From the NCBI RefSeq assembly GCF_988242995.1, contig NZ_OZ547043.1: a stretch of DNA of 64,000 bases. One strand, given 5' to 3'. The notes under the pieces are model-generated. The model ran no database searches, had not been told where the DNA came from, and worked only from the letters and a program-made list of their open reading frames with translations. Position 1 is the first letter of the stretch, and each line of letters begins with the position of its first letter. Shown one piece after another: positions 36,250 to 40,769 of the stretch. The translations under genes were made by a program, and so were the position numbers.

Positions 36250-36702
36250 TAACTACACTCGATGTATTTAGAATAAAAGACAATACGAATCGCACTTTAT
36301 CAATTTTCACTTAAAGTATGAACTGGATATCTTTATTCATAAGAACTATTCATCAACAGCGTATAGAGGCGATTATGTAAAACCACTCATTAGCCTCAAA
36401 ACAAAGACAAATTTCCAGATTTATTACTTAATCAATGAATAACAAGCTTAAAAAATACACTGTTATTCTAAAGAAAAAATTAACAGGCATTAATTAATAT
36501 TAAAAAAATAATATGTTAAAATTTCTTAACGGTTTAAGGATTATACAAATAACACTTTGATTAAATTTTATTTTTTGTATCGATAATTGTGAACTTGTCA
36601 TATATGGAGAGCTATTTTGAACATGAGGTGTTACGTGGATATGTTGCTTAATACGAGTACTGCTAATATAAAAACTTGAGAAAGAGATAACGGGTTATAT
36701 GG

Positions 36703-37219
36703 TGGTTTATTCCCGCTGGTGCGGGGAACTCATCAGTGATATCCAACATTGCGGAGCTAAACGCGGTTTATCCCCGCTGGCGCGGGGAACTCAATTAGCC
36801 CGCCTCGCGCGGGTTTTTTTGTGCCGGTTTATCCCCGCTGGCGCGGGGAACTCTTTACTTATCTGCAAATATTTTTTGTCAGCTGCGGTTTATCCCCGCT
36901 GGCGCGGGGAACTCACGAACGCGGCACACCAGGGCGTCTCATCGTCCGGTTTATCCCCGCTGGCGCGGGGAACTCGAACACGACAGGAGTGATAAATGTA
37001 CGCACATCGGTTTATCCCCGCTGGCGCGGGGAACTCGGCTGATAGTGCTTCTGATTATTCGGCGCAAGCGGTTTATCCCCGCTGGCGCGGGGAACTCTAG
37101 GACCCAATATAAAACCGACTGGTTATTTTCGGTTTATCCCCGCTGGCGCGGGGAACTCTTTCAGTCTGGAACACAACGGCGTTAAATAACCGGTTTATCC
37201 CCGCTGGCGCGGGGAACTC
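36703..37219 (-). CRISPR. Orphan CRISPR array, type I-E repeats, 9 repeats and 8 spacers
   Basis: Repeat CGGTTTATCCCCGCTGGCGCGGGGAACTC, period 61 bp, starts 36703 (degenerate distal repeat, 3 mismatches), 36764 ... 37191; 32 bp spacers; leader on the right; no adjacent cas genes. Confidence 0.97.
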
Positions 37220-37300: not shown

Positions 37301-37558
37301 ATCCATTATGTTAAAGAGCACTTAATTCATTGATTGAAAAGCCAAATATTTAAAGTAATTCTATACCGACTAAAATCCACCAAACTCCGACGTAATAATT
37401 TTCACTCCAACGAAAAATTAACGCCACAGAATTTGTAGATAATGACAATGATTAGTCCGGAATGGGCAAAATGGATGAGTTTTCAGAGGCGACAAAAAAT
37501 ATAAATGAGTGGAAGTCTTTACAGGTTCCACCCATTTATAACGCTTATAAATGTTTAA

Positions 37559-38230
37559 TCAGGCAATATTTAAATATTTATGTGTTTGCATCGACAAACG
37601 CCAGTTGCGCGCAATGCACGTATCGATACATAAACGAGTAGCATCTTCCTTTTGGCTAATCGGCTGCAGCGCAATGACTCGCGGTTTATCATCGGTCAGT
37701 GTTGCCAGTAGTTCATCCAGTGCTTCAATATCACGCACGCGTCCCACTGGATGCTTGATTTCGTTGGCTCGCTCCAGTGCCTGTGACAACACTTCATAGC
37801 CGCCGCGCATGTTCAGCTTTGGCGATACGGTAACCCAGGTATTCGGTGTGCAGCGTACTTCATGAGTACCACTGGTTTCGATCTGGCAGCTAAAACCGTT
37901 CTTTTCGAGCAGGTCAGTCAGTGGCAGCAAATCATGAATGCAAGGCTCACCACCCGTAATCACCACATGCCGCGCGGTGTATCCCTGGCGACCAATGACA
38001 GCCAGCAAGTCTTCACTGCTCGCCGCCCCCCACTTATCACTCTCTTTGGTCTTCGCCAGAATGCTGAAAAGGGAGACTTCCCGATCCTCAAGCTTTTCCC
38101 AGGTGTGTTTGGTGTCGCACCAGGCACAGCCAACCGGGCATCCCTGTAAACGAATAAAAATGGCGGGGACGCCGGTAAAGTAACCCTCACCTTGCAGGGT
38201 CTGGAACATCTCGTTAATCGGGTACTGCAT
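37559..38230 (-). CDS. queE: 7-carboxy-7-deazaguanine synthase (radical SAM)
   Basis: ORF track 223 aa with CxxxCxxC-type cluster motif (GCPVGCAWCDT). Confidence 0.93.
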   Translation of the reverse strand: MQYPINEMFQTLQGEGYFTGVPAIFIRLQGCPVGCAWCDTKHTWEKLEDREVSLFSILAKTKESDKWGAASSEDLLAVIGRQGYTARHVVITGGEPCIHDLLPLTDLLEKNGFSCQIETSGTHEVRCTPNTWVTVSPKLNMRGGYEVLSQALERANEIKHPVGRVRDIEALDELLATLTDDKPRVIALQPISQKEDATRLCIDTCIARNWRLSMQTHKYLNIA

Positions 38231-38523
38231 AGCATTCTCTGTGAAGTGGATAATTGTTAATTATTGCAGATCCTGCCGCAACAATCATGTCTTATTAACA
38301 TTCTGTTACAGGCAGGTTTAAAGAAAAATGAGAAACAGATCGTTAATAATAAAAGGGAGTAACGTATTATGTCAGAAATAAATAAAGCAAATGGATTTAA
38401 TCATGTCAAAAACATTCACCAAAATTATACTTATTTTTTCTGTGTTCGTTTTTAATTATAACGAATCTCAAATTACCGATGTCGCCGTCAATTTATTTAT
38501 CCAGCTTTAATGGGACATTTATA

Positions 38524-39396
38524 ATGCGCTATTTCATACTAATATTCACATTCGTGAGTTCCTTTGTTGCAGCCCAACCAACTATTATCCCACAATTACA
38601 GCAACAAGTTACGGATCTTACGAGTAGCTTAAACTCACAAGAAAAGAAAGAACTGACGCGGAAGTTAGAATCTATTTTCAATAATACCCAAGTACAAATT
38701 GCTGTATTAATTATTCCCACAACCAAAGACGAGACAATTGAACAATATGCTACAAGGGTTTTTAACAATTGGCGTTTAGGAGATGCCAAACGCAATGATG
38801 GGATACTGATCATTGTTGCCTGGTCGGATCGTACTGTCCGCATCCAGGTAGGTTATGGGCTGGAAGAAAAGGTAACCGATGCTCTGGCTGGAGATATCAT
38901 CCGTAGCAACATGATACCCGCATTTAAACAACAAAAATTAGCTAAGGGATTAGAGTTAGCTATAATCGCTTTGAATAACCAACTCACTTCACAACACCAA
39001 TATTCGGCTAATCCTTCAGAAAGTGAATCAGCGTCTTCCAGCGATCATTACTACTTTGCTATTTTTTGGGTATTTGCAGTGATGTTCTTCCCTTTCTGGT
39101 TTTTTCATCAAGGCAGTAATTTTTGTCGCGCATGTAAAAGCAGTGTCTGTATTTCAGCAATCTATCTTTTAGATTTATTCCTGTTCTCCGATAAAACTTT
39201 TTCCATTGCTGTATTTTTCTTCTTTTTTACTTTCACCACCATTATGGTCTTTACCTGTTTATGTGTACTTCAGAAAAAAGCATCTGGTAGAAGTTATCAT
39301 TCAGACAACAGCGGTTCCGGTGGCGGCTCAAGTGGCGGCGGATTTAGCGGCGGGGGCGGTTCTTCTGGCGGTGGCGGCGCGTCCGGTCGCTGGTAA
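38524..39396 (+). CDS. ygcG: TPM-domain protein with C-terminal TM segment and Gly/Ser-rich tail
   Basis: ORF track 38479..39396; start set at [19 protein letters not shown] (signal-like N-terminus, 290 aa); tail [27 protein letters not shown]. Confidence 0.82.
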
Positions 39397-39455
39397 CTCA
39401 ACCATAAAAAATGCCAGCCCGAAGGCTGGCATTTTTAAATCAGATAAAGTCAGAC

Positions 39456-40769
<1,314 letters not shown>

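Follow-up and report, generated by a model that had tools for sequence, protein, structure and literature searches.

A short open reading frame between queE and ygcG of E. coli as the front end of a frameshifted yqcG allele, and its probable origin from a lemA relic

The DNA considered in the present work, called the window below, is a stretch of 64,000 nucleotides. Between the divergently transcribed genes queE and ygcG it has a spacer of 293 nt with a GC content of 30%, and this spacer holds the short open reading frame (ORF) that is the subject of the study. The features needed for the discussion are the following (positions in the window, strand, description).

37559 to 38230, minus strand: queE, the divergently transcribed neighbour
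38231 to 38437, plus strand: segment of 207/207 nt whose alignment with six lemA-type E. coli loci (queE-lemA spacer plus lemA 5' end) is free of gaps, at 82-84% identity
38294 to 38322, minus strand: hexamers of the queE sigma-70 promoter, TTTAAA-17-GTTAAT, from the K-12 genomic SELEX list (PMC3946193); the window is identical to K-12 here
38353 to 38359, plus strand: Shine-Dalgarno (SD)-like AAGGGAG, with a spacer of 9 nt to the ATG at 38369
38369 to 38455, plus strand: the reported ORF of 28 sense codons, with its ATG at 38369-38371 and its stop codon TAA at 38453-38455
38369 to 38510, plus strand: the whole yqcG locus of the strain, annotated by RefSeq as a frameshifted pseudogene in the record of strain MEW
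38391 to 38510, plus strand: 39-codon version of the +1-frame ORF, from an extra in-frame ATG at 38391
38403 to 38510, plus strand: 35-codon +1-frame ORF with a first codon homologous to the start codon of lemA; it corresponds to the C-terminal 33 residues of K-12 YqcG
38408 to 38412, plus strand: run of five A's (A5; A4 in K-12) that separates the 28-codon from the 46-codon allele
38524 to 39396, plus strand: ygcG, a TPM-domain gene (PF04536), which starts 13 nt past the stop codon shared by yqcG and the +1-frame ORF

A reading made from the letters alone, referred to as the sequence-only reading, had put the 28-codon frame forward as a weak candidate for a small-protein gene. Its description of the sequence is exact as regards the ATG at 38369, the length of the frame and the AAGGGAG located 9 nt before the ATG. 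The role of chance was evaluated with 2000 dinucleotide-preserving shuffles of the 293-nt spacer. An ATG-initiated ORF of at least 28 codons appears in 72% of the shuffles (with a mean of 1.07, compared to 2 observed), which justifies the earlier caution that AT-rich DNA readily gives chance ORFs. With the additional demand of an SD-like 4-mer inside the 16 nt before the ATG and at least 4 nt away from it, the fraction is 6.6%. By itself, the 28-codon ORF is not beyond chance. The start site at 38369 is judged to be real because of homology, as yqcG is annotated to begin there. The 28-, 39- and 46-aa peptides gave no match in Pfam and NCBIfam, libraries that have no YqcG HMM, and an Rfam scan of 37400-39500 with E<=1 gave three weak matches, far under the gathering scores and none overlapping the ORF. 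A consensus scan of 38150-38600 returned 3 promoter-like sites, compared to 2.1 expected, and no terminators.

The identity of the locus follows from comparison with other genomes. A megablast search with 38100-38700 matched 5421 of 5426 complete E. coli genomes, with strain MEW being 100% identical, and the annotation in this identical record, at window positions 38369-38510, reads 'hypothetical protein, frameshifted'. In a pairwise alignment with a K-12-derived genome, the ATG at 38369 coincides with the annotated yqcG start, and the SD and start region AAAGGGAGTAACGTATTATGTCAGAA is the same base for base in the window and in K-12 yqcG. The sole length difference between the two is one nucleotide in the A-run, for which the context is GTCAAAAAC in the window and GTCAAAAC in K-12. 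The N-terminal codons 1-14 are in the yqcG frame, and 12 of the 14 residues are the same as in the K-12 counterpart MSEENKENGFNHVK. After codon 14 the frame departs from that of yqcG, and codons 15-28 are read out of it. The 46-codon frame with its hydrophobic segment KIIFIFSVLVF is interrupted in the window, where the segment sits in the +1 frame. Removal of one A in silico gives a product that is 37/46 (80%) identical to K-12 YqcG. The queE/yqcG/ygcG layout, with its strands and the 13-nt gap to ygcG, is the same in the MEW and K-12-derived records.

YqcG was reportedly detected by epitope tagging in work of Hemm et al. from 2008 and 2010, and it is said to be induced by SDS/EDTA. The RefSeq name of the K-12 protein (46 aa, b4682, WP_001288228.1) is 'cell envelope stress response protein YqcG'. 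A passage of PMC5821084 attributes the first description of yqcG to Hemm et al. 2008, and the gene goes unmentioned in the Weaver 2019 preprint.

Judged by these alignments, the reported ORF is the front end of the known gene yqcG and not a new gene, and both the locus and its frameshifted allelic state are already known and annotated. What stands of the small-ORF proposal is the translation-start signal, which is genuine in being the SD and ATG of yqcG; the 28-codon frame, on the other hand, is not a conserved small-protein frame. The sequence-only reading had named conservation of the frame in relatives as a check, and this does not hold up: about half of the complete E. coli genomes read 46 codons, and in about 27% the homologous ATG is followed by TTT and TAA, and then by a full lemA gene.

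The same A5 run is present in four more genomes, the haplotypes of which are diverged from each other. A 37-mer specific for A5 is found in 1162 of the 5426 complete genomes (ca 21%), one of them an O25b:H4-ST131 strain, and the A4 37-mer in 2731 (ca 50%). At most one genome combines a K-12-type haplotype with A5, and two genomes combine an A5-type haplotype with A4. The indel is tightly linked to the haplotype. It is an old and stable polymorphism, and the extra A can be put down neither to a hypermutable tract nor to faulty assembly. Some additional yqcG alleles with indels were also encountered (locus L007 of strain SMN152SH1 and proteins P0026, P0042 and P0088), and some variants have paired, frame-restoring shifts between the A-run and a run of six T's at window 38434-38439. 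One frameshift in the T-run, on a K-12-type background, gives 28 codons that end at the same TAA. Some of these extra indel variants may be assembly errors.

It is important to point out that another gene can occupy this position. Full-length lemA was found by a gene search in 1452-1455 of the 5426 genomes, including O157:H7 and strain 83972. In lemA-type E. coli, queE is followed in divergent orientation by lemA, several genes with a TPM domain (three in those stretches that were fetched far enough) and eno. A LemA protein search with contig look-ups located the same layout in E. albertii, E. marmotae and one Klebsiella contig. Downstream of lemA there are between 1 (Klebsiella) and 3 (E. coli, E. 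albertii) TPM genes. In E. marmotae (locus L018, 3604-4509), ca 900 bp without a called gene, possibly a decayed TPM paralogue, lie between lemA and a single TPM gene.

LemA is a protein of 200 aa in which residues 32-193 form the PF04011 domain; a lipobox is present in the N-terminus MLRTFIVIIFIFNLSGCGYNDIQTYDEQVN. In the megablast search, the 80-90% identity band contains 1335 records; among the matches listed, the match stops at window 38437, and 'LemA family protein' is the annotation under it. The lemA start codon corresponds to the ATG at 38403 of the window, and the homology comprises this codon and the first 70-100 nt of the coding sequence, in the same frame. The peptide of this +1 frame, called the relic peptide below, is identical to the LemA N-terminus at 15/33 positions (45%) in a gapless pairwise alignment with E=2e-5. 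The lipobox LSGC of LemA (IFIFNLSGCGYN) is lost in the window, which has SVFVFN instead. The LemA domain is absent, as there is no Pfam match for the 39-aa or 46-aa ORF. Going by this comparison, the window locus has homology to the lemA 5' end; as the LemA domain is missing, it does not belong to the LemA family.

In an alignment of ten sequences, those of K-12 type have a gap at the A-run relative to every lemA and every A5 sequence, and this is the sole such place. The upstream ATG of lemA-type loci leads only to ATG-TTT-TAA in E. coli and to a 5-codon ORF in E. albertii, and the alignment has no ATG at the position of the yqcG start in E. marmotae. The AAGGGAG motif is present in all relic (yqcG-type) haplotypes except AJ5, which has AAGGAAG, and is lacking in lemA-type haplotypes. 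The additional ATG at 38391-38393 was created by the same G-to-T change that weakens the SD of lemA from AAAGGGA to AAATGGA; this change is common to the window and K-12 and is not found in the other four A5 haplotypes examined. Over the 5426 complete genomes, the locus has a full lemA in ca 27%, the relic with A5 in ca 21%, and the relic with A4, i.e. intact yqcG, in ca 50%. These states are mixed inside phylogroups, as seen for the B2 strains ST131 (A5) and 83972 (lemA).

On the other side of the relic, the 13-nt spacer between stop codon and ATG and the GGGAC...ATGCG junction before ygcG are similar to what separates lemA from the first TPM gene. The YgcG N-terminus, MRYFILIF, can likewise be set beside MRNFIFLM of the first TPM gene. 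These features hint that the 3' end of lemA and the TPM junction may have been retained. In local alignments of the last codons of the relic with the lemA 3' end, the best shuffle p was ca 0.02, in one of four comparisons. Gap-permissive global alignments made for the 3' endpoint of the lemA deletion fragment inconsistently, and the protein search with K-12 YqcG returned no full-length lemA with relic-type 5' sequence.

As to ygcG itself, window 38699-39460 matches, at 94% identity, the last of the three TPM genes in one lemA-type locus (L010). In another (L013), the last TPM gene shares 92% identity with 38701-38945, and the fetched stretch ends there. The part between 38438 and 38698 has no nucleotide match in the six lemA-type loci, and the N-terminus of YgcG still resembles the first TPM gene. 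This apparent mosaic suggests recombination or deletion among TPM paralogues. A search of genome contigs with YgcG gave one E. coli locus only, with lemA and three TPM genes, plus a short contig of 413 bp and low coverage (L011, NZ_RAWK01000597.1) in the assembly of Corallococcus aberystwythensis; the latter carries a fragment 94% identical to E. coli YgcG and is almost certainly E. coli contamination. Sequestration of the ribosome binding site of ygcG, which would tie ygcG to translation from upstream, was considered by folding 38440-38550, and the result, -14.5 kcal/mol with a z of -0.5, does not differ from that of shuffles. At the far side of queE, just upstream of it, there is a CRISPR array at 36600-37219 with repeated 'VYPRWRGEL' and 'FPAPAGIN' ORF translations, where the identical RefSeq record also has a CRISPR direct repeat annotated.

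From these comparisons we infer that yqcG is what is left of a deleted lemA, with its hydrophobic part corresponding to the signal peptide of the LemA lipoprotein. In the proposed sequence of events, a lemA gene adjacent to queE would be the ancestral state. In one family of E. coli haplotypes the LemA domain would then have been deleted, which would leave 35 codons, namely the start of lemA and its signal peptide in decayed form. This family would have acquired, or would already have had, the strong SD and an open frame at the upstream ATG. The A5 run keeps the spacing of lemA, and on the basis of parsimony and of this colinearity we infer that it is the ancestral form. Finally, in the lineage leading to K-12, a deletion of one nucleotide would have joined the strongly initiated upstream ORF to the relic, giving the 46-aa YqcG. 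The 'frameshifted' label of RefSeq describes the window relative to K-12, and the evolutionary direction is probably the reverse. K-12 YqcG is likely to be a young chimera, in which the signal-peptide half of lemA and 13 upstream codons were joined by a single-base deletion. The window would represent the unfused ancestor. This state is carried by about one fifth of E. coli, and there a 28-aa peptide would be driven by the same strong ribosome binding site. The literature searched does not mention a link between yqcG and lemA, the relic origin or the polarity of the ORF fusion.

Concerning translation in the window strain, the SD and ATG are those of K-12 yqcG, and for this reason ribosomes probably initiate at 38369, to release a non-hydrophobic peptide of 28 aa at 38455. 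A 35- or 39-aa relic peptide could in addition arise at a low level from 38403 or 38391. We do not expect a conserved function for the 28-aa peptide.

Sequence constraint was examined with seven haplotypes that are not independent of each other and ca 45 codons. On this basis, the N-terminal 13 codons give a pN/pS of 2.4 and the relic frame one of 1.3, the latter falling to 0.75 when only A5 alleles are compared. In the out-of-frame tail of the 28-codon ORF, the differences among A5 alleles are all nonsynonymous. The yqcG segment of the window is 91.5% identical to K-12, making it the most diverged of the neighbourhood, while the flanks have 95.6-98.4%. Nothing in this small sample suggests purifying selection on any encoded peptide. 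The protein search with K-12 YqcG named homologues from E. coli and Shigella only, along with many further frameshift variants. A TraDIS study suggested that yqcG may be essential (PMC5821084), but this is hard to reconcile with a gene that is intact in only about half of the complete E. coli genomes and for which a deletion strain exists (PMC4974570). A gene that is intact in about half of the genomes, frameshifted in ca 21% and replaced by lemA in ca 27%, and that has no detected constraint, argues against a conserved core function of YqcG.

Taken together, we hold with high confidence that the feature is the 5' half of yqcG in its A5 allele, with the +1-frame ORF as a relic of lemA. The A5 form would be ancestral, K-12 YqcG would derive from it by the 1-nt deletion, and a 28-aa peptide that lacks a conserved function would probably be made.

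A number of other interpretations were considered. It is conceivable, though doubtful, that the key element here is not a peptide but cis-regulatory DNA for queE with binding of PhoP and H-NS, which would be compatible with the preferred reading. In K-12 delta-mgrB, queE transcription rises strongly when yqcG is deleted, and the 300 bp upstream of queE, all of yqcG included, are bound by phospho-PhoP (PMC4974570). The spacer is also listed as bound by H-NS (PMC3946193), the GC content is 27-33%, and there are candidate PhoP-box-like repeats at 38304-38320 and 38398-38414, the second one being on the minus strand. However, each of these candidate matches has 2 mismatches and lies in AT-rich DNA, and the deletion phenotype could stem from the scar of the resistance cassette or from loss of the protein.

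Some further observations concern these elements. The candidate at 38304-38320 (plus strand, TGTTACAGGCAGGTTTA) is a direct repeat with 2 mismatches to KGTTTA-N5-KGTTTA, and it overlaps the -35 hexamer of queE at 38317-38322. It is nearly invariant in eight aligned E. coli sequences, one of which has an A to C change and another a G to A change; E. albertii and E. marmotae have one or two further changes. The minus-strand candidate spans the A-run, so the spacing of its half-sites would differ between A4 and A5. For yqcG, the promoter hexamers given by Shimada 2014 are TTAACA-18-GATAAT, and these were not found by reading the window sequence. The allele differences may alter the translation of ygcG or the PhoP-dependent control of queE, the latter because the locus falls in the region reported to regulate queE (PMC4974570).

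Another option, also compatible with the preferred reading but unlikely, is that A5 strains express the relic peptide, of 35 (or 39) aa, from 38403 (or 38391). The lemA ATG is kept in all haplotypes, and its SD, AAAGGGA located 7 nt before it, is kept in four of five A5 haplotypes, but in the window this motif is weakened to AAATGGA. The start is moreover inside an overlapping ORF with a stronger SD, the elongating ribosomes of which would interfere. Gene callers often predict the 35-aa ORF (as in proteins P0099 and P0085), but the lipobox LSGC is lost. No lower pN/pS was measured than that of the relic frame within the A5 alleles, but on ca 33 codons a value of 0.75 is indistinguishable from neutrality.

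It is very unlikely that the 28-codon ORF is a functional small-protein gene in its own right. It has a good SD and ATG, the five A5 haplotypes examined agree in its length and stop, and an ORF of such length with an SD occurs in the small fraction of shuffles given above (6.6%). However, its second half is read in another frame in ca 50% of the genomes, and in lemA-type genomes, with their ATG TTT TAA, the ORF is absent. The tail differences among A5 alleles are nonsynonymous throughout, Pfam and NCBIfam give no match, and the search with K-12 YqcG found no relatives beyond E. coli and Shigella.

Even less plausible is that A5 strains still make a full-length YqcG-like protein by +1 slippage, ribosomal or transcriptional, on the A-run. 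The shift needed is indeed +1 and falls exactly at GTC AAA AAC, where a tRNA-Lys paired to AAA would be able to slip onto the AAA that overlaps it. Against this, five A's are well under the run lengths known for efficient transcriptional slippage, the fold of 38440-38550 downstream of the slip site is no better than that of shuffles (z -0.5), and the sequence shows no coding constraint. Finally, one may ask whether the additional A stems from a homopolymer error in sequencing or assembly, in which case the strain would truly encode intact 46-aa YqcG. Homopolymer indels are common among assembly errors, and the protein database has many odd YqcG frameshift variants. This idea can nevertheless be practically dismissed, given that A5 is present in 1162 complete genomes from many laboratories and is tied to distinctive haplotype SNPs. 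It is also colinear with lemA, as seen in six E. coli loci and, for the A-run, in both E. albertii and E. marmotae.

The small ORF that seemed new is a frameshifted allele of an annotated gene, and there is no new gene to call here. The lemA-relic origin and the polarity of the fusion would be a modest addition, chiefly for researchers working on bacterial small proteins. If true, they would make yqcG a clean and datable case of a detectable small protein built from a pseudogene remnant by the deletion of one nucleotide.

It is instructive to compare the window locus with known systems. With K-12 YqcG it shares the locus, strand, SD, start codon and a stop 13 nt before ygcG, but the extra A of the window shortens the frame to 28 codons, without the hydrophobic segment. 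The syntenic lemA (PF04011; E. coli, E. albertii, E. marmotae and Klebsiella) lies at the same place and in the same orientation, next to queE and upstream of TPM genes; it has 200 codons, compared to 35 in the relic, which lacks residues 32-193 and the LSGC motif. The third comparison is with the birth of genes from relics, in which small ORFs arise from pseudogene remnants or from frameshift fusion of ORFs, and which is not a curated family. Here yqcG would fit as a short translated ORF made of a leftover signal-peptide region and of upstream sequence that has no substantial ORF in lemA-type genomes, with no sequence constraint and with a distribution limited to one species. The difference is that in the window strain the fusion would not yet have happened, and the two ORFs overlap unfused.
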